Shown here: in pieces, positions 4,990 through 13,812 of the stretch
How the letters are laid out: the number at the start of each line of letters is the position of its first letter
Position numbering within the stretch: position 1 is the stretch's first letter
Source: Escherichia coli
Lineage (GTDB): Bacteria; Pseudomonadota; Gammaproteobacteria; Enterobacterales; Enterobacteriaceae
NCBI RefSeq assembly: GCF_024223415.1
Contig: NZ_CP100500.1
Strand: one strand, 5' to 3'
DNA: 64,000 bases
Program-made: the position numbers and the translations under genes
The notes under the pieces: model-generated
What the model saw: only the letters and a program-made list of their open reading frames with translations
Databases searched by the model: none
What the model was told of the DNA's origin: nothing

Positions 4990-5144
4990 TAAAAGGTGTG
5001 TTACAGGGCAGAAATTTACTGCCCTGTATCATTGGATGAGCGCAAAGAGAATGACCGGTTTGTGAATGTAATTTTATGAATTTAAATGGTTTTATCTTTC
5101 AGTAGAAACCTGAAACGTTCATCAAACACTAAGGTTATTTCCTC

Positions 5145-5172
5145 AAGGGCAGATTCTTTTCTGCCCTTTTTT
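5145..5172 (+). terminator. Intrinsic terminator downstream of fruA
   Basis: AAGGGCAGA-ttctttt-CTGCCCTT stem followed by a T-run; a second perfect 9-bp hairpin lies at ~5003-5027. Confidence 0.7.
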
Positions 5173-5412
5173 AGTGTTCATGTTCTGTGCATCCCGTCAC
5201 AAATTCCTCGCTTTTGTAATTCAGGCATTTAATCGCATTTTGTGAGCCTGCTCAAATCTGCCCGCTTTGCCTCTCTGGCGGCAATTTACTTTACGTAAAA
5301 CATGCATACTATGAGCACATGTTTAAATATGAACACATGTTTAAACCGTCTTTGCAGTATCTATATCCTTGTGGATTGACAGGGTTGGTAATTTTTTACC
5401 AGAGGACGTGCT

Positions 5413-6354
5413 ATGCGCGAAAAGGATTATGTCGTAATTATAGGTTCGGCGAATATTGATGTCGCCGGATATTCACATGAATCATTAAATTATGCGGATT
5501 CAAATCCAGGTAAAATAAAATTTACACCTGGTGGAGTAGGGCGAAATATTGCACAAAACCTGGCGTTGCTGGGTAACAAAGCCTGGCTACTGAGCGCAGT
5601 AGGTAGTGATTTTTATGGTCAATCGCTGCTAACGCAAACCAATCAATCTGGCGTTTATGTCGATAAATGCCTGATTGTGCTGGGAGAAAATACGTCGAGT
5701 TATTTATCATTACTCGATAATACCGGTGAAATGCTGGTTGCTATAAATGACATGAATATTAGCAACGCTATTACAGCTGAATATCTCGCACAACACCGTG
5801 AATTTATTCAGAGGGCAAAGGTCATTGTCGCGGACTGTAATATCAGTGAAGAGGCACTGGCATGGATTCTGGATAATGCCGCCAACGTACCCGTATTTGT
5901 CGATCCGGTTTCAGCGTGGAAATGTGTCAAAGTGCACGACCGTCTAAATCAGATCCACACTCTGAAGCCAAACCGCCTTGAAGCGGAAACCCTGAGTGGG
6001 ATAGCGCTGTCAGGGCGTGAAGATGTGGCAAAGGTTGCCGCCTGGTTCCATCAACATGGCCTGAACCGACTGGTATTGAGCATGGGCGGCGATGGCGTTT
6101 ATTACAGTGAAATCAGCGGTGAAAGTGGCTGGTCTGCCTCGATCAAAACCAATGTTATTAATGTTACCGGAGCGGGCGATGCCATGATGGCGGGACTTGC
6201 TTCGTGTTGGGTAGACGGAATGCCGTTTGCCGAATCTGTTCGTTTCGCACAGGGATGTTCGTCAATGGCGCTCTCCTGTGAATACACCAATAACCCCGAT
6301 TTATCGATTGCCAACGTTATATCGTTAGTGGAGAACGCAGAATGTCTGAATTAA
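5413..6354 (+). CDS. psuK: Pseudouridine kinase (PfkB family)
   Basis: 313-aa ORF, MREKDYVVIIGSANIDV...; matches recalled PsuK/YeiC. Confidence 0.9.
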   Translation: MREKDYVVIIGSANIDVAGYSHESLNYADSNPGKIKFTPGGVGRNIAQNLALLGNKAWLLSAVGSDFYGQSLLTQTNQSGVYVDKCLIVLGENTSSYLSLLDNTGEMLVAINDMNISNAITAEYLAQHREFIQRAKVIVADCNISEEALAWILDNAANVPVFVDPVSAWKCVKVHDRLNQIHTLKPNRLEAETLSGIALSGREDVAKVAAWFHQHGLNRLVLSMGGDGVYYSEISGESGWSASIKTNVINVTGAGDAMMAGLASCWVDGMPFAESVRFAQGCSSMALSCEYTNNPDLSIANVISLVENAECLN

Positions 6355-7280
6355 AAATTTCCCCTGAATTATTACAAATTTCCCCGGAAGTGCAGGACGC
6401 TTTAAAAAACAAAAAACCGGTTGTGGCGCTGGAATCGACCATTATTTCTCACGGGATGCCGTTCCCACAAAATGCCCAGACCGCAATTGAAGTTGAAGAA
6501 ACTATTCGTAAACAGGGCGCAGTACCTGCCACTATCGCCATTATTGGTGGCGTGATGAAAGTGGGTTTAAGCAAAGATGAAATTGAATTACTGGGTCGTG
6601 AAGGGCATAACGTGACCAAAGTTAGTCGTCGCGATTTACCTTTTGTTGTTGCCGCCGGAAAAAATGGCGCAACCACTGTGGCTTCAACGATGATTATTGC
6701 GGCGCTTGCCGGAATTAAAGTATTTGCCACCGGGGGAATTGGTGGTGTTCATCGCGGGGCGGAACATACCTTCGATATTTCTGCCGATTTGCAAGAACTG
6801 GCAAATACTAATGTCACCGTTGTTTGTGCCGGGGCGAAATCTATTCTCGATTTAGGATTAACCACTGAGTATTTAGAAACCTTCGGTGTGCCGTTAATTG
6901 GCTATCAGACTAAAGCGCTGCCTGCGTTTTTCTGCCGCACCAGCCCATTTGAAGTCAGTATTCGCCTTGATAGTGCCACGGAAATCGCTCGTGCAATGGC
7001 AGTGAAATGGCAAACCGGTTTGAACGGTGGTCTGGTAGTGGCGAATCCGATCCCGGAACAGTTTGCGATGCCGGAGGAATCTATCAATGCAGCCATAGAT
7101 CAAGCCGTCGCCGAAGCCGAAGAGCAGGGCGTTATTGGTAAAGAAAGTACACCGTTCCTGCTGGCGCGTGTTGCTGAACTGACCGGCGGTGACAGCCTGA
7201 AATCCAACATCCAACTGGTGTTCAACAACGCCATTCTGGCGAGCGAAATTGCCAAAGAATACCAGCGTCTCGCGGGTTAA
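6342..7280 (+). CDS. psuG: Pseudouridine-5'-phosphate glycosidase
   Basis: 312-aa ORF overlapping the psuK 3' end; matches recalled PsuG/YeiN. Confidence 0.9.
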   Translation: MSELKISPELLQISPEVQDALKNKKPVVALESTIISHGMPFPQNAQTAIEVEETIRKQGAVPATIAIIGGVMKVGLSKDEIELLGREGHNVTKVSRRDLPFVVAAGKNGATTVASTMIIAALAGIKVFATGGIGGVHRGAEHTFDISADLQELANTNVTVVCAGAKSILDLGLTTEYLETFGVPLIGYQTKALPAFFCRTSPFEVSIRLDSATEIARAMAVKWQTGLNGGLVVANPIPEQFAMPEESINAAIDQAVAEAEEQGVIGKESTPFLLARVAELTGGDSLKSNIQLVFNNAILASEIAKEYQRLAG

Positions 7281-7373
7281 TTTCTGACGGGCAGAAAGCC
7301 GTCGCCCGTACTGATCATACATACCGAAACCTGGCGCTGACGCCGGGTTTACTGGCATGAAGGGAAAATCATT

Positions 7374-8624
7374 ATGGATATAATGAGAAGTGTTGTGGGG
7401 ATGGTGGTGTTACTGGCAATAGCATTTCTGTTGTCGGTAAATAAAAAGAGCATCAGTTTGCGCACGGTTGGAGCCGCACTGCTGCTGCAAATCGCTATTG
7501 GTGGCATCATGCTCTATTTTCCGCCGGGAAAATGGGCAGTAGAACAGGCGGCATTAGGCGTTCATAAAGTGATGTCTTACAGTGATGCCGGTAGCGCCTT
7601 CATTTTTGGTTCGCTGGTCGGGCCGAAAATGGATGTCTTGTTCGACGGTGCAGGCTTTATCTTCGCCTTTCGCGTACTTCCGGCGATTATCTTCGTCACT
7701 GCGCTTATCAGCCTGCTGTACTACATTGGCGTAATGGGACTGCTAATTCGTATTCTTGGCAGCATTTTCCAGAAAGCTCTTAACATCAGCAAAATCGAGT
7801 CTTTTGTTGCGGTTACCACTATTTTCCTCGGGCAGAACGAGATCCCGGCGATCGTTAAACCGTTTATCGATCGCATGAATCGCAACGAGCTGTTTACCGC
7901 AATTTGTAGCGGGATGGCATCCATTGCCGGTTCGATGATGATTGGTTACGCCGGAATGGGCGTGCCGATTGACTACCTGTTAGCGGCATCGCTGATGGCT
8001 ATCCCAGGCGGTATTTTGTTTGCACGTATTCTTAGCCCAGCAACCGAGCCTTCGCAGGTCACGTTTGAAAATCTGTCGTTCAGCGAAATGCCGCCAAAAA
8101 GCTTTATCGAAGCAGCGGCGAGCGGTGCGATGACCGGGCTGAAAATCGCCGCCGGTGTGGCGACGGTGGTCATGGCGTTTGTCGCAATTATTGCGCTGAT
8201 TAATGGCATTATTGGCGGAATTGGCGGCTGGTTTGGTTTTGCCAATGCCTCTCTGGAAAGTATTTTTGGCTATGTGCTGGCACCGCTGGCGTGGATCATG
8301 GGTGTGGACTGGAGTGATGCCAACCTTGCGGGTAGCCTGATTGGGCAGAAACTGGCGATTAACGAATTCGTCGCTTACCTGAGTTTCTCCCCATACCTGC
8401 AAACGGGCGGCACGCTGGAAGTGAAAACCATTGCGATTATCTCCTTTGCGCTTTGTGGTTTTGCTAACTTTGGTTCTATCGGTGTTGTCGTTGGGGCATT
8501 TTCGGCTATTTCGCCAAAACGTGCTCCGGAAATCGCCCAGCTTGGTTTACGGGCGCTGGCAGCAGCAACGCTTTCCAACCTGATGAGCGCGACCATTGCC
8601 GGGTTCTTTATTGGTTTAGCTTGA
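7374..8624 (+). CDS. psuT: NupC-family nucleoside transporter (putative pseudouridine transporter)
   Basis: 416-aa polytopic ORF, MDIMRSVVGMVVLLAIAFLLSVNKK...; paralogue of nupX in this window. Confidence 0.9.
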   Translation: MDIMRSVVGMVVLLAIAFLLSVNKKSISLRTVGAALLLQIAIGGIMLYFPPGKWAVEQAALGVHKVMSYSDAGSAFIFGSLVGPKMDVLFDGAGFIFAFRVLPAIIFVTALISLLYYIGVMGLLIRILGSIFQKALNISKIESFVAVTTIFLGQNEIPAIVKPFIDRMNRNELFTAICSGMASIAGSMMIGYAGMGVPIDYLLAASLMAIPGGILFARILSPATEPSQVTFENLSFSEMPPKSFIEAAASGAMTGLKIAAGVATVVMAFVAIIALINGIIGGIGGWFGFANASLESIFGYVLAPLAWIMGVDWSDANLAGSLIGQKLAINEFVAYLSFSPYLQTGGTLEVKTIAIISFALCGFANFGSIGVVVGAFSAISPKRAPEIAQLGLRALAAATLSNLMSATIAGFFIGLA

Positions 8625-8691
8625 GTTTCATTGCCGGATGTACTCGCTTATTAAGCGTTGCATCCGGCAATCGCGCTATTGCAAATAATTT

Positions 8692-9351
8692 TTACTGCAT
8701 CATCCCGGAGAATTTATTCTCCGGGTCCATCTCCAGCGCCAGTCCTGACAACTGCTTTCTGTTTTTAATGAGATATCCTTTCTTGCTTTTAATTAATAAA
8801 CCGTCGTGAATGAATTGCGCGAGAACATATAAAAGATGTCGATAAGAAACGCCTAAATACTCTGCCGCTTGCGTATGCTTTTCGTGATAAAGATCACCTT
8901 CTTGTGAGAGTAATATAAATGCTGCCAGGCGATTCACTAACGGAAATGATTGATTCTGAGTTAAAGAAACAATATTACGATAATTTTTATGACTTAAGGT
9001 GACGCAAAGTTTTCGTAAAAATAGGGTGTCGTTTAATAACAGCGGACGGTAATGTTTCATAGGGAGCGCAAGGCACCAACACTCTTCAATCGCCTGTACT
9101 GCACGTGGTTCATGGTCTTTATCGATTAACTCAATCTCGCCAATAAAACAGGGGGCGGCAAAGAAATCGATCAGCGACACGCAACCATTAGCTAGCGTGG
9201 CGTAAAGCCTGGCGCGGCCTCGCGTCAGGTAAAACAGCCAGGACGGCTGTTGCCCTTCCTGCACAATGTAGTCACGCGCTAAAAAATGAAACAGCCGCGT
9301 ATCGGCTGAAACATCCGTTAAAAAGCAATCCTTAAACGCGGATTCACTCAT
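8692..9351 (-). CDS. yeiL: CRP/FNR-family transcriptional regulator YeiL
   Basis: Track ORF is 232 aa; start placed at [10 protein letters not shown]... (219 aa) from recalled YeiL; C-terminal HTH. Confidence 0.85.
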
Positions 9352-9519
9352 CAATTGCTGCTTAAGATCATTATTGTGGATTTCTTTCACGATGTTTATC
9401 CGCTATGAGATTTCTCATATTTAGCATACGTACGCTGTTGTTAAGATTCAATCATCGGCCCGGTCGAATTTTCTTTGCTGTAGAAAAAATAACGCAACTG
9501 GAAACAGAGGAAATAAACA

Positions 9520-10461
9520 ATGGAAAAGAGAAAAATTATTCTGGATTGTGATCCGGGTCATGATGATGCTATTGCAATGATGATGGCAGCGAAACATCCG
9601 GCAATAGATTTATTAGGCATCACTATTGTAGCGGGTAATCAGACGCTTGATAAAACATTAATTAATGGCCTGAATGTTTGCCAGAAACTGGAGATTAATG
9701 TTCCGGTTTATGCGGGGATGCCGCAACCCATTATGCGTCAACAAATCGTTGCCGATAATATTCACGGTGAAACCGGACTGGATGGCCCGGTATTCGAGCC
9801 GCTGACCCGCCAGGCAGAAAGTACCCACGCGGTGAAATACATCATTGATACCCTGATGGCAAGCGATGGCGATATCACTCTGGTGCCGGTTGGTCCGTTG
9901 TCAAATATCGCGGTGGCAATGCGTATGCAACCCGCAATCCTGCCCAAAATCCGTGAAATTGTGCTAATGGGCGGCGCTTACGGTACAGGCAACTTCACGC
10001 CATCTGCCGAGTTCAACATCTTTGCTGACCCGGAAGCCGCACGCGTGGTGTTCACCTCCGGCGTTCCATTAGTGATGATGGGCCTCGATCTTACCAACCA
10101 GACCGTTTGCACCCCGGACGTAATTGCTCGGATGGAAAGGGCAGGCGGCCCTGCCGGAGAGCTATTCAGCGACATCATGAACTTCACTCTCAAAACGCAG
10201 TTCGAAAACTACGGCCTGGCTGGCGGCCCGGTGCACGACGCCACCTGCATCGGTTATCTGATTAACCCTGATGGCATTAAAACCCAGGAGATGTACGTCG
10301 AAGTGGACGTCAACAGTGGCCCTTGTTATGGGCGTACCGTCTGCGACGAGCTGGGCGTTCTTGGCAAGCCCGCTAATACCAAAGTCGGCATCACTATTGA
10401 TACCGACTGGTTCTGGGGCTTAGTCGAAGAGTGCGTGCGCGGCTACATCAAAACCCATTAA
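9520..10461 (+). CDS. rihB: Pyrimidine-specific ribonucleoside hydrolase
   Basis: 313-aa ORF with the N-terminal DCDPGHDD nucleoside-hydrolase motif. Confidence 0.92.
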
Positions 10462-10560
10462 GTGTTGATAACAAGCCGGGCCGGTATCGCAAGATGCAGG
10501 CCTGGCTATTTCTGAGGGGCAGAAAGCCGTCGCCCAATATGACATGAAGAGATAATAACT

Positions 10561-11808
10561 ATGGATGTCATGAGAAGTGTTCTGGGAATGGTGGTATTGC
10601 TGACGATTGCGTTTTTACTGTCAGTAAACAAGAAGAAGATCAGCCTGCGTACCGTTGGCGCGGCGTTAGTGTTACAGGTCGTGATCGGCGGGATTATGCT
10701 TTGGTTACCGCCAGGGCGTTGGGTCGCTGAAAAAGTCGCTTTTGGCGTGCATAAAGTGATGGCGTACAGCGATGCAGGTAGCGCATTTATCTTCGGTTCG
10801 CTGGTCGGGCCGAAAATGGACACGCTGTTTGATGGCGCAGGATTTATCTTTGGTTTCAGGGTGTTACCGGCAATTATCTTCGTCACCGCGCTGGTGAGTA
10901 TTCTCTACTACATCGGTGTGATGGGGATCTTAATTCGCATTCTCGGCGGTATCTTCCAGAAAGCGTTAAATATCAGCAAGATCGAGTCATTCGTCGCGGT
11001 CACTACCATTTTCCTCGGGCAAAACGAAATTCCGGCAATCGTCAAACCCTTTATCGATCGGCTGAATCGCAATGAGTTATTTACAGCGATTTGTAGTGGC
11101 ATGGCCTCAATTGCCGGTTCGACAATGATTGGTTACGCCGCGCTGGGCGTGCCTGTGGAATATCTGCTGGCGGCATCATTAATGGCGATCCCCGGCGGGA
11201 TCTTGTTTGCCCGCCTGTTAAGCCCGGCTACGGAATCTTCGCAGGTTTCCTTTAATAACCTCTCTTTCACCGAAACACCGCCAAAAAGCATTATTGAAGC
11301 GGCAGCGACAGGGGCGATGACCGGGCTGAAAATCGCTGCGGGTGTGGCAACAGTGGTGATGGCATTTGTTGCCATCATTGCGTTAATTAACGGTATTATC
11401 GGCGGCGTTGGCGGCTGGTTTGGTTTTGAACATGCCTCGCTGGAGTCCATTTTAGGTTATCTGCTGGCCCCACTGGCGTGGGTAATGGGTGTTGACTGGA
11501 CTGATGCGAATCTTGCCGGGAGTTTGATTGGACAGAAACTGGCAATAAATGAATTTGTCGCTTATCTCAATTTCTCACCCTATCTGCAAACGGCTGGCAC
11601 TCTGGATGCTAAAACCGTGGCGATTATTTCCTTCGCGTTGTGCGGTTTCGCTAACTTTGGTTCTATCGGGGTGGTGGGGGCGTTTTCTGCGGTTGCGCCA
11701 CACCGTGCGCCGGAAATCGCCCAACTTGGTTTACGCGCGCTGGCGGCGGCGACACTTTCTAATCTGATGAGTGCCACCATTGCCGGGTTCTTTATTGGTT
11801 TAGCGTAG
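10561..11808 (+). CDS. nupX: NupC-family nucleoside permease
   Basis: 415-aa ORF, MDVMRSVLGMVVLLTIAFLLSVNKKK...; close paralogue of psuT. Confidence 0.9.
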   Translation: MDVMRSVLGMVVLLTIAFLLSVNKKKISLRTVGAALVLQVVIGGIMLWLPPGRWVAEKVAFGVHKVMAYSDAGSAFIFGSLVGPKMDTLFDGAGFIFGFRVLPAIIFVTALVSILYYIGVMGILIRILGGIFQKALNISKIESFVAVTTIFLGQNEIPAIVKPFIDRLNRNELFTAICSGMASIAGSTMIGYAALGVPVEYLLAASLMAIPGGILFARLLSPATESSQVSFNNLSFTETPPKSIIEAAATGAMTGLKIAAGVATVVMAFVAIIALINGIIGGVGGWFGFEHASLESILGYLLAPLAWVMGVDWTDANLAGSLIGQKLAINEFVAYLNFSPYLQTAGTLDAKTVAIISFALCGFANFGSIGVVGAFSAVAPHRAPEIAQLGLRALAAATLSNLMSATIAGFFIGLA

Positions 11809-11863
11809 TGTGCGATTTATGAGCCGGATTAGATGCGGTCAAGCGTCGAATCCGGCAACATTG

Positions 11864-12952
11864 TTACACCATTGGCACTAATGACAGCGCGTTATCGGCA
11901 GACAGGGTAGGGTTGTTTAAGCTGCCGCTGGCGCGTGAAATTGCCGCGCAGGCCATCGCAAAACGGGCGCTGTCACGGAAATTGTTTCCCTCCAGAAAGC
12001 TATATACCAGACCCGCCATAAAACCATCGTCAGCACCAAAACTGTCTACCGTCGTATGCGCTGGCACAGTCAGCAAAAATTGTTCACCATCCTTTTCGCT
12101 GCAATAAACTGACTCATCGGGCAAATAAACAAACAGTTGCTGAACACCTTGCTGATGCAATGCATTCACTGCGGCATTACGGTCAGCATCGCTGGTGATC
12201 GCCTGTCCCCATAAAATTTCCAGCTCCGGTAAAGTGGGTTTCAGGGTGTGAACATGCGCCAGCCAGTGTTTGATTTTGCCCGCTTTGAATTCTGAAACGG
12301 TATCGACAAACACCGGGATCTCACCAGCGAGGGTAAAGACCCATTCCAGCGCCTCGGCTGTCAGGTTGCAATCAGCCAGTACCACGCCCGCATGACGAAG
12401 TAAATCGCGCGACCCGTTCAATAATTGCGGCGATAACTGTTCCAGCAGATGGGTATCGTTAATCGCCAGCACGGTTTGATCGTCTCGATTGGCAATTGCC
12501 AGATACGTCGATGTGCTTTGACCATGTAAACGAACGCAGCCGGAGACATTCACGCCGGCGCGGCGCGTTTCTTCCAGGAGCATTTCGCCATAAAAGTCAT
12601 CGCCAATCACTGAAAGCAAATGGACGTCACGGCCTAACAGCGCCAGATTGTGGGCGATGTTGCGTCCCACGCCGCCCGCCGAGCAATGAATCGTACCGGG
12701 ATGAGAAGCCGCTTGCGGGTAACGGATATCCGCCATCCCGCGAATATCCATATTGATTGTCCCCACCACTACGCAGTATTCCTGCTCGGTGAGAATGTAA
12801 CCTTTGCCTTTAATCCGCCCTTTGCGCATTAAATCCATAATATGCGCCGCAACGCGCGAACGACTGATTTGCAGCATGTCCGCAATTTCGTTCTGCTGAA
12901 TCAGCGGGTTACGCCGTAAAATTGCAAGGATCTCCTTTTCCCGGTTATTCAT
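11864..12952 (-). CDS. yeiI: PfkB-family sugar/nucleoside kinase with N-terminal HTH domain
   Basis: 362-aa ORF; N-terminal HTH (NNREKEILAILRRNP...) fused to a ribokinase-like domain paralogous to psuK. Confidence 0.88.
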   Translation of the reverse strand: MNNREKEILAILRRNPLIQQNEIADMLQISRSRVAAHIMDLMRKGRIKGKGYILTEQEYCVVVGTINMDIRGMADIRYPQAASHPGTIHCSAGGVGRNIAHNLALLGRDVHLLSVIGDDFYGEMLLEETRRAGVNVSGCVRLHGQSTSTYLAIANRDDQTVLAINDTHLLEQLSPQLLNGSRDLLRHAGVVLADCNLTAEALEWVFTLAGEIPVFVDTVSEFKAGKIKHWLAHVHTLKPTLPELEILWGQAITSDADRNAAVNALHQQGVQQLFVYLPDESVYCSEKDGEQFLLTVPAHTTVDSFGADDGFMAGLVYSFLEGNNFRDSARFAMACAAISRASGSLNNPTLSADNALSLVPMV

Positions 12953-12954
12953 CT

Positions 12955-13812
12955 TCAGGCTACCGCTTTTTCAGTTTGTTGCGCTTTCAGCCAGGCGATC
13001 TCTTCTGCCCAGATATCCGGGTTGATGGTTTCGAGGATCAGCGGAATGCCGTCGAAACGGTCGTCCTGCATGATCCAGCGGAACGCATCATGACCGATAT
13101 TGCCTTCACCGAGGCTATGATGGCGGTCAACGCGGCTGCCAAAGGTGCTTTTCGCATCGTTAAGGTGCATCCCGCGCAGATACTTAAAGCCGACAATACG
13201 GGCAAAATCCGCGAACGTTTTCTCGCATTCGGCTGGAGTACGCAAATCATACCCGGCAGCGAAAGCATGGCAGGTATCAATGCAGACGCCTACACGGGAT
13301 TTATCTTCCACGCCGTCGATAATCGCCGCGAGATGTTCGAATTTAAACCCTAAGTTACTGCCCTGACCGGCGGTGTTTTCAATCACCGCGGTCACACCTT
13401 GAGTTTTATCCAGCGCAATGTTGATGGATTCGGCAATACGCGCAAGGCAATCCTCTTCTGAAATCTGCATCAGATGGCTGCCAGGGTGGAAATTGAGCAA
13501 AGAAAGCCCCAGTTGTTCGCAACGCTGCATTTCATCTATAAAGGCATCGCGCGATTTTTCCAGAGCTTCAGCGACCGGATGTCCGAGGTTAATCAGATAG
13601 CTGTCGTGGGGAAGAATTTGCGCCGATGTGTAGTGATATTTTTCACAGGCGGCTTTGAATTCATCGATGGTTTGCGTCGTGAGCGGTGCGGCACGCCACT
13701 GACGTTGGTTTTTGGTGAACAAGGCAAACGCGGTTGCGTCGATTTCGGCGGCGCGAATTGCGGCATTTGCCAGACCGCCAGCAGCACTAACGTGCGCTCC
13801 AATGTATTTCAT
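12955..13812 (-). CDS. nfo: Endonuclease IV (AP endonuclease)
   Basis: 285-aa [17 protein letters not shown]...; matches recalled Nfo. Confidence 0.95.

Follow-up and report, generated by a model that had tools for sequence, protein, structure and literature searches.

The leaders of psuT and nupX, two paralogous transporter genes of Escherichia coli, share a short stem-loop element (hereinafter HP1) that is under selection, preserves its base pairing, is strand-specific and is tied to a single clade of transporters. Probably, HP1 is a cis-acting stem-loop of the plus-strand RNA that resides in the transporter leader and acts after transcription, a general reading in which we place moderate confidence. 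A more specific version of it, in which HP1 forms a structural boundary, so that the enzyme and transporter segments of the mRNA meet separate fates, and possibly is read by a factor, is put forward tentatively, as one possibility. The element is fairly ordinary in kind and restricted to one transporter clade of Enterobacteriaceae; the units in which it is found, psuKGT and rihB-nupX, are poorly understood nucleoside-salvage units of E. coli. In the literature, we found no study of the regulation of these two operons and, in that on YeiL, YeiI, psuT or nupX regulation, no study that describes HP1.

Two copies of the element in the E. coli chromosome

The window, that is, the whole 64-kb stretch of E. 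coli chromosome that was analysed, includes the gene order fruA, psuK, psuG, psuT (plus strand), yeiL (minus), rihB, nupX (plus), yeiI (minus), nfo (minus), in which psuT, nupX and the other gene names were confirmed via the annotation of identical E. coli genomes. The original prediction, made from the letters of this stretch, that an identical 19-nt motif lies upstream of both transporter genes, is borne out: the 19-mer GGGCAGAAAGCCGTCGCCC occurs at exactly two sites in the window, 7289-7307 and 10517-10535, both on the plus strand, with no further site in the 64 kb even when 3 mismatches are allowed, and none of 100 dinucleotide shuffles yielded two matches. The stretch common to both sites extends to 27 of 28 positions (7280-7307 versus 10508-10535, the preceding A included) and contains the heptamer TTTCTGA (7281-7287 and 10509-10515, plus strand), which had been said to precede each copy; it is indeed present at both sites, but one non-matching base (C7288 and G10516, respectively) parts it from the 19-mer. 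The first site lies 66 nt upstream of the psuT ATG (7374) and the second one 25 nt upstream of the nupX ATG (10561). It also holds, as had been claimed, that the coding regions have diverged and that the preceding genes are unrelated. PsuT and NupX are 88% identical at the protein level and their genes 78% identical at the DNA level, with only 47% identity at fourfold-degenerate sites, so the noncoding match is far from neutral, and by Pfam PsuG belongs to Indigoidine_A and RihB to IU_nuc_hydro. The motif is found approximately twice per genome in 5424 of the 5426 complete E. coli genomes (median 2 places, maximum 3), the psuT and nupX leaders being its locations in every record inspected.

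At psuT, HP1 spans positions 7287-7309 of the plus strand and comprises a 6-bp stem, ACGGGC / GCCCGU, closed around an 11-nt loop, AGAAAGCCGUC; it folds at -11.1 kcal/mol and scores 43.6 bits, on the plus strand, against a covariance model that was built from 16 sequences. HP1 is followed by a single-stranded, A/C-rich, G-poor linker (7310-7326, plus strand; consensus aTATCA-NN-CATACC-R in the alignment), by a second hairpin, HP2 (7327-7350, plus strand; AAACCUGGCG-CUGA-CGCCGGGUUU, a 10-bp stem with a conserved U·G wobble), and, 10 nt past the end of HP2, by the Shine-Dalgarno sequence AAGGGA and the ATG (7360-7376, plus strand), with TCATTATG invariant, where the 7374-8624 coding sequence starts. 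The 3-4 U that come after HP2 are themselves paired with an upstream run of A.

The nupX spacer is organized differently in that a long hairpin, HP0 (10474-10507, plus strand; AGCCGGGCC...GGCCUGGCU, with an inner GNRA-capped stem), stands directly 3' of the rihB stop; a hairpin occupies the same place in all nupX-type spacers examined, with differing sequence. Downstream of HP0, HP1 (10517-10535, plus strand) consists of GGGC / GCCC around the same 11-nt loop as at psuT and scores 37.0 bits. What remains of the leader beyond it is a short remnant (10536-10563, plus strand), from which the linker and HP2 have been deleted and which holds an SD-like GAAGAGA and the ATG at 10561, the start of the 10561-11808 coding sequence. 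The whole 117-nt nupX leader folds at -40.4 kcal/mol; the z-scores of the E. coli leader folds are about -3.4, and across loci the folding energies range from -4 to -15 kcal/mol for HP1 and from -15 to -25 kcal/mol for HP2. The TTTCTG that precedes the motif can pair with CAGAAA (7292-7297) into an alternative 6-bp stem, which is broken in the nupX leader of E2348/69.

There is also variation among E. coli strains at nupX. The closing position of HP1 in the window strain is a G·A mismatch (10516/10536), and in K-12 and most strains it is a U-A pair. Two alleles of the leader were seen, a short one (the window, K-12, E2348/69) and one that is 14 nt longer (the GTDB representative strain), of which the longer retains more of the ancestral linker (window 10536-10560 versus positions 6165-6203 of locus L002).

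Conservation and pairing across Enterobacteriaceae

Transporter loci were collected from reference genomes, from contigs encoding named homologs and from a metagenome scan that was anchored on the Shine-Dalgarno sequence and the start codon, not on the motif. The orthologous loci of related species were checked for absence of the motif, and it was present in at least nine genera: Escherichia, Citrobacter, Enterobacter, Leclercia, Klebsiella, Kluyvera, Buttiauxella, Superficieibacter and Entomohabitans, as well as several metagenomic lineages. The 35 distinct sequences from these genera yield the consensus (N)(C)GGGC-[A/C/U]G-NNN-GC-N-GU-N-GCCC(G)(N). In each case, the element follows an enzyme gene of the same orientation, psuG at psuT-type genes and rihB at nupX-type genes, and is placed 25-70 nt before the ATG of the transporter gene. 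The distance from HP1 to the stop codon of that enzyme gene (6 to ~80 nt) is more variable than the distance to the ATG, and the homology between the psuT and nupX leaders begins at HP1, so the element belongs to the transporter unit. The covariance model matches only upstream of genes of the PsuT/NupX clade (at least 87% protein identity). Co-occurrence with NupC-family genes, which had been suggested for examination, accordingly stands for this clade but not for the family at large, given that the element is absent at E. coli nupC and that a model search upstream of ~70 more distant CNT genes gave no match.

Of the 19 positions of the element, 10 are invariant in 16 loci from nine genera; at fourfold-degenerate sites of adjacent genes in those genomes, the mean pairwise identity is 0.415, with none of the 35 columns invariant, and the 7 nt immediately upstream of the element in the same 16 loci show identities of 0.28-0.48. 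The upstream TTTCTGA is limited to Escherichia and lacks conservation in Citrobacter, Enterobacter, Leclercia, Klebsiella and Kluyvera, and the free loop bases AAA and C likewise are specific to Escherichia.

The pattern of substitutions within the element is that of a paired stem. Over the 35 distinct sequences, 92.9% of the cells of the six-pair stem are standard pairs; none of 500 shuffles reached the observed paired fraction or covariation score, and slid-partner controls were 34-55% paired. The closing pair is C-G in 25 sequences, U-A in five and U·G in three, the first pair of the GGGC arm is G-C in 33 and A-U in two, and the outermost pair is G-C in 11, A-U in 10 and G·U in two. The inner GGC/GCC pairs are essentially invariant, a single G·U and a single A·C being the exceptions in the 35 sequences. 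In the loop, G6, G10 and U14 never vary and G13 changes once. The sequences are related and the independent compensatory events are few (~2-4), and it is on these that the covariation rests. Wobble pairs are found in E. albertii, E2348/69, the nupX leader of Kluyvera and locus L120, in addition to the conserved U·G of HP2, and all these would be C·A mismatches if read on the opposite strand; in line with this asymmetry, the model scores 33-44 bits on the plus strand and about 12 bits on the minus strand. The conserved interior of the loop is asymmetric as well, with G6, G10, C11, G13 and U14 lacking symmetric partners. Thus, of the two options that had been raised for the motif, a protein operator and an RNA hairpin (GGGC...GCCC), the compensatory and wobble changes across genera support the second one. 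A transcribed stem-loop is favoured over a double-stranded protein site because the pairing is kept, because the wobbles fit the plus strand only, and because in the psuT leader of Entomohabitans an unrelated 14-bp hairpin is located exactly at the HP1 position.

Replacement and loss are more extensive further downstream. The HP2 position is taken by unrelated hairpins in the L091 lineage and in Entomohabitans psuT, and HP2 together with most of the linker is deleted in the nupX leaders of E. coli, Buttiauxella and Kluyvera. The consensus fold recovers the HP1 stem alone. Two inner helices of the loop, one with the pairs 5-12 and 6-11 and the other with 6-15 and 7-14, were considered; both are compatible with the sequences and neither covaries.

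Several features of the broader neighbourhood also vary between genera. In Hafnia paralvei (locus L009, 815-4272) and Serratia plymuthica (L010), the operon consists of a YeiI-like kinase gene, psuG and the transporter gene, where the YeiI-like protein at the head of the operon is a 372-aa fusion of a winged HTH and a PfkB kinase, and the spacer between psuG and the transporter gene contains one long hairpin (CCTGAAAGG...CCTTTCAGG) in place of HP1 and HP2. This hairpin was considered as a homolog of HP1 and set aside: it gave no model match, and it resembles the HP2 of the L091 lineage, with that homology not established. The genes yeiL (minus) and rihB-nupX (plus) make up a three-gene module (window 8692-11808; loci L082, L084, L085, L087) that is found in at least three genomic contexts, namely the interval between psuT and yeiI, the interval between fruA and nfo (Buttiauxella) and a place next to an MFS gene and efp (K. 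spallanzanii); the module is missing from Enterobacter, Leclercia and K. michiganensis, where psuT adjoins yeiI.

Protein site, gene conversion, RNA switch or 3' end

So could the conserved element be something other than a leader stem-loop that acts on the transporter message? According to the operator option, HP1 would be a DNA site for YeiL, YeiI or another factor at an internal promoter of the transporter gene. The outer arms do form an inverted repeat, GGGC-N11-GCCC, both YeiL (cNMP-binding and Crp-type HTH domains) and YeiI (winged HTH and PfkB) are encoded nearby in E. coli, and a genomic-SELEX peak of the RpoS holoenzyme lies inside psuG, upstream of psuT (PMC5493296). However, only the outer 4-6 bp are symmetric, unlike a palindromic operator, the half-sites would stand ~15 bp apart, and the G·U-type changes keep the RNA pairing while breaking the DNA symmetry. 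Furthermore, the site lies between cistrons, and neither spacer contains a promoter-like consensus: a scan for sigma-70, sigma-S, sigma-E and sigma-54 hexamers around the motif, complemented by eye, gave no acceptable or conserved match, and motif, model and regional searches gave no HP1 copy in the fruA-psuK or yeiL-rihB promoter regions. Finally, HP1 is independent of yeiL or yeiI in its neighbourhood, with co-occurrence judged at the level of the locus: it is kept in loci without yeiL in Enterobacter, Leclercia and K. michiganensis (L005, L008, L083, L088, where psuKGT and yeiI are present) and in loci without yeiI in Buttiauxella and K. spallanzanii (L082, L085, where yeiL-rihB-nupX is present). 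The tempting reading of the motif as a YeiL/YeiI operator is corrected by these observations, and an operator of any kind appears very unlikely. Even less credence can be given to the proposal that the two E. coli copies are identical merely as a side effect of conversion between the paralogous genes and that the element has no function of its own. It is compatible with this proposal that the Escherichia copies also share four otherwise variable loop bases and the 7 nt upstream and that in Kluyvera four loop positions distinguish the two copies, but the element is no less conserved in Enterobacter, Leclercia, K. michiganensis and Buttiauxella, which carry a single copy, and no conversion tract is visible: over their first 150 nt, the E. 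coli coding sequences are 72% identical, below cross-genome psuT/nupX pairs. The single-copy genera and the lack of a tract in the coding sequence rule out conversion as the full explanation; at most, it explains the extra identity at ~11 Escherichia positions. Selection accounts for ~15 of the 19 identical positions of the E. coli copies, and the extra identity in Escherichia (four loop and seven upstream bases) may reflect micro-conversion, lineage-specific constraint or chance. A different kind of challenge comes from the sensory readings. Were HP1 to serve as the recognition hairpin in a dedicated sensing system, whether as a tiny metabolite-binding RNA (for a modified or pyrimidine nucleoside, for example) or as the target of an RNA-binding regulator, PsuT and NupX would be switched on without regard to the enzyme genes of their operons, and the frozen stem sequence and 4-5 loop bases would therefore be explained while neutral sites are saturated; we regard this as unlikely. 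The stricter form, in which HP1 is a very small RNA switch that senses a ligand (e.g. a nucleoside) or a protein and thereby governs how the transporter message is translated or processed, seems still more doubtful and, indeed, improbable. The conservation of loop G6, G10, C11, G13 and U14 and of the exact stem far beyond pairing needs, the confinement to one transporter clade and the lack of an Rfam 15 match for the leader, which would make it a new family, all speak for such a switch. Against it stand the makeup of the element, which is one short hairpin and lacks a conserved expression platform, and the dispensability of the linker and HP2 in several nupX lineages and of HP1 itself in Entomohabitans psuT, where another hairpin has been swapped in. 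Moreover, no candidate binding protein co-occurs with HP1 in the loci examined, and no alternative pairing of HP1 with HP2 or with the Shine-Dalgarno sequence is conserved, only 3-4 bp being possible. With a consensus fold that is the HP1 stem only, no conserved helix that would sequester the Shine-Dalgarno sequence and the lineage-specific loss of linker and HP2, HP1 does not fit the definition of a riboswitch.

The main rival, and at the same time the closest precedent, is the class of protective stem-loops at mRNA 3' ends, and the question is which side HP1 serves, the upstream genes or the transporter gene. In E. coli, the 3' ends of Rho-terminated transcripts are commonly guarded by stable stem-loops that lack a U-tract and have rut sites right behind them (Dar and Sorek 2018, PMC6061677). 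Under this scenario, HP1 would be a 3'-end protective stem-loop or an operon-internal stop that serves the upstream genes: Rho would often stop transcripts of psuKG or rihB within the leader or near the start of the transporter gene, exonucleases would trim the message back to HP1, and any effect on the transporter would be simple polarity rather than regulation. HP1 resembles the described class (PMC6061677) in that it is a stable, GC-rich stem-loop without a U-tract that in psuT-type loci begins only 6-11 nt after the psuG stop and, in most psuT-type leaders, is directly followed by a C-rich, G-poor stretch, the linker composition over 39 leaders being A 283, C 199, G 101 and T 123 (C/G = 1.97). 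However, the linker is only ~17 nt long and is missing or not C-rich in E. coli nupX, so that reading it as a rut site is not general. Unlike the stem-loops of that class (PMC6061677), HP1 moved with the transporter gene in the duplication, not with the upstream gene, and it is conserved in the sequence of both loop and stem, the former being something that a protective role does not need; in nupX-type spacers, where HP0 already follows rihB, HP1 is the second hairpin after the stop. The distance constraint, too, is tighter towards the ATG than towards the stop. As for intrinsic terminators, HP1 resembles them as a GC-rich coding-strand stem-loop 3' of a gene (4-7 bp, mostly G-C), but it is followed by GUACUGAU at psuT and AAUAUGAC at nupX, with no U-tract; a U run after the HP1 stem is found in none of the 35 variants, and a scan of both spacers for terminator-like sites returned none, with neither HP1 nor HP2 passing. 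On balance, we consider it rather unlikely that HP1 serves the upstream genes.

Several further candidates were tried and rejected. Among Rfam 15 families, the best match was isrJ at 16.2 bits (gathering threshold 37), a generic one that aligned HP2 and a few flanking bases; nothing was found for the nupX leader and nothing at threshold in an 8-kb scan. Mimicry of a stable RNA, with HP1 as an rRNA- or tRNA-like decoy for a modification enzyme or a ribosomal protein, was examined by a model search of an rrn operon and five tRNAs, which gave only the rrn terminator stem at 13.5 bits, the rrn operon containing no HP1 match. The antisense open reading frames 6894-7358 and 10506-10886 (minus strand) both translate the motif in one frame (GRRLSA), but the positions that vary do not fall on third codon positions, interspecies indels in the leader break the frame and there is no conserved start. 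A short upstream open reading frame from the ATG in GGCATGAAGG is not conserved, being absent in Klebsiella, Leclercia and K. spallanzanii, and a REP/BIME dispersed repeat is at odds with only ~2 copies per E. coli genome.

A better candidate than HP1 for a protein operator of the psu operon is a conserved palindromic repeat of the ACATGTTTA type, which is found upstream of psuK in five genera. The fruA-psuK intergenic region of the window (5311-5346) contains ACATGTTTAAA repeats, tandem and in part palindromic, ~70-100 nt before psuK, and ACATGTTTA-like copies, often as inverted pairs, are located at the equivalent position in Citrobacter, Leclercia, Enterobacter and K. michiganensis.

A possible boundary between enzyme and transporter messages

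What, then, might a leader stem-loop of this kind do? We infer that HP1 is transcribed within the operon mRNA; it would thus be located inside the psuK-psuG-psuT and rihB-nupX messages, between the enzyme and transporter cistrons. Under the scenario that we favour, HP1 was copied along with the transporter gene in the duplication that gave psuT and nupX, and purifying selection would have kept it in both lineages ever since. Most psuT-type leaders present, in this order, HP1, the A/C-rich linker, HP2 and the ribosome-binding site. HP1 might set the expression of the transporter cistron apart from that of the upstream enzyme genes, in cis, by blocking exonucleases and by keeping RNA or ribosomes that lie upstream from interfering. 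The molecular effect of HP1 and any partner that it might have are speculative. A purely structural boundary does not explain the frozen loop bases and inner stem pairs; the conserved loop bases suggest that HP1 could also be a recognition site for a putative factor. The RpoS-holoenzyme peak inside psuG is a weak hint that psuT may also have a transcript of its own, and HP1 would then be part of the 5' UTR. Two datasets of transcript ends contain no entry for the psuG-psuT and rihB-nupX spacers, and these genes are poorly expressed in the laboratory.

Two groups of known hairpins bear comparison with HP1. Intercistronic hairpins, such as the REP hairpins between malE and malF and those of the puf operon, give operon segments different stabilities. 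Like these, HP1 is located between cytoplasmic-protein and membrane-protein cistrons of one operon, and HP1 and HP2 are replaceable by an unrelated hairpin, as seen in Entomohabitans psuT and the L091 lineage; unlike REP elements, HP1 is present in two copies per genome and has a different sequence, and its conserved loop bases are unexplained by a stability role. The second group includes the protein-recognised leader hairpins, namely lambda boxB, the BglG/SacY RAT element and the PyrR binding loop. HP1 shares with them a short GC-closed stem, conserved loop bases and a position in the leader of a downstream gene, but it has neither an overlapping terminator or antiterminator nor a co-occurring gene for an RNA-binding protein, and its loop is larger (11 nt) and only partly conserved.

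The element is a concrete, mutable handle on the uncoupling of transporter output from that of the enzymes, and a candidate new RNA motif for curation. If the conserved loop does bind a ligand or a protein, the importance of HP1 would be much higher. HP1 may also be useful for pseudouridine-producing strains, psuT being a target in strains engineered for the production of pseudouridine (PMC13090712). Uptake of uridine, cytidine, xanthosine or gemcitabine by PsuT was not detected (PMC11241209), and mutations in the psuK/fruA intergenic region, the psuK promoter, have been repeatedly fixed in long-term stationary-phase cultures (PMC7858067).

A few additional features of the region deserve mention. 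REP-like hairpins (GCCGGAT...ATCCGGC) follow both psuT (~8630-8672) and nupX (~11822-11870), the latter with a weak, sub-threshold match to Rfam naRNA4. The 9-mer GGGCAGAAA that opens the motif also opens a hairpin past fruA, CAGGGCAGAAATTTACTGCCCTG (5005-5026), probably by coincidence; beyond that hairpin, GGGCAGA...TCTGCCC followed by six T (5148-5172) is terminator-like. Inside nupX, at ~11678, the window has one GTG/GGT unit fewer in a GGTGGTGGTGGGGG run than the otherwise identical NCTC10444, an in-frame slippage variant that leaves NupX with 415 aa, compared to 416 in NCTC10444. Across complete E. coli genomes, the identity of the 8-kb region 5000-13000 is unusually spread, with 31 records at 99% or above, 2560 at 95-99%, 1800 at 90-95% and 1040 at 80-90%, which suggests divergent alleles or recombination at this locus.
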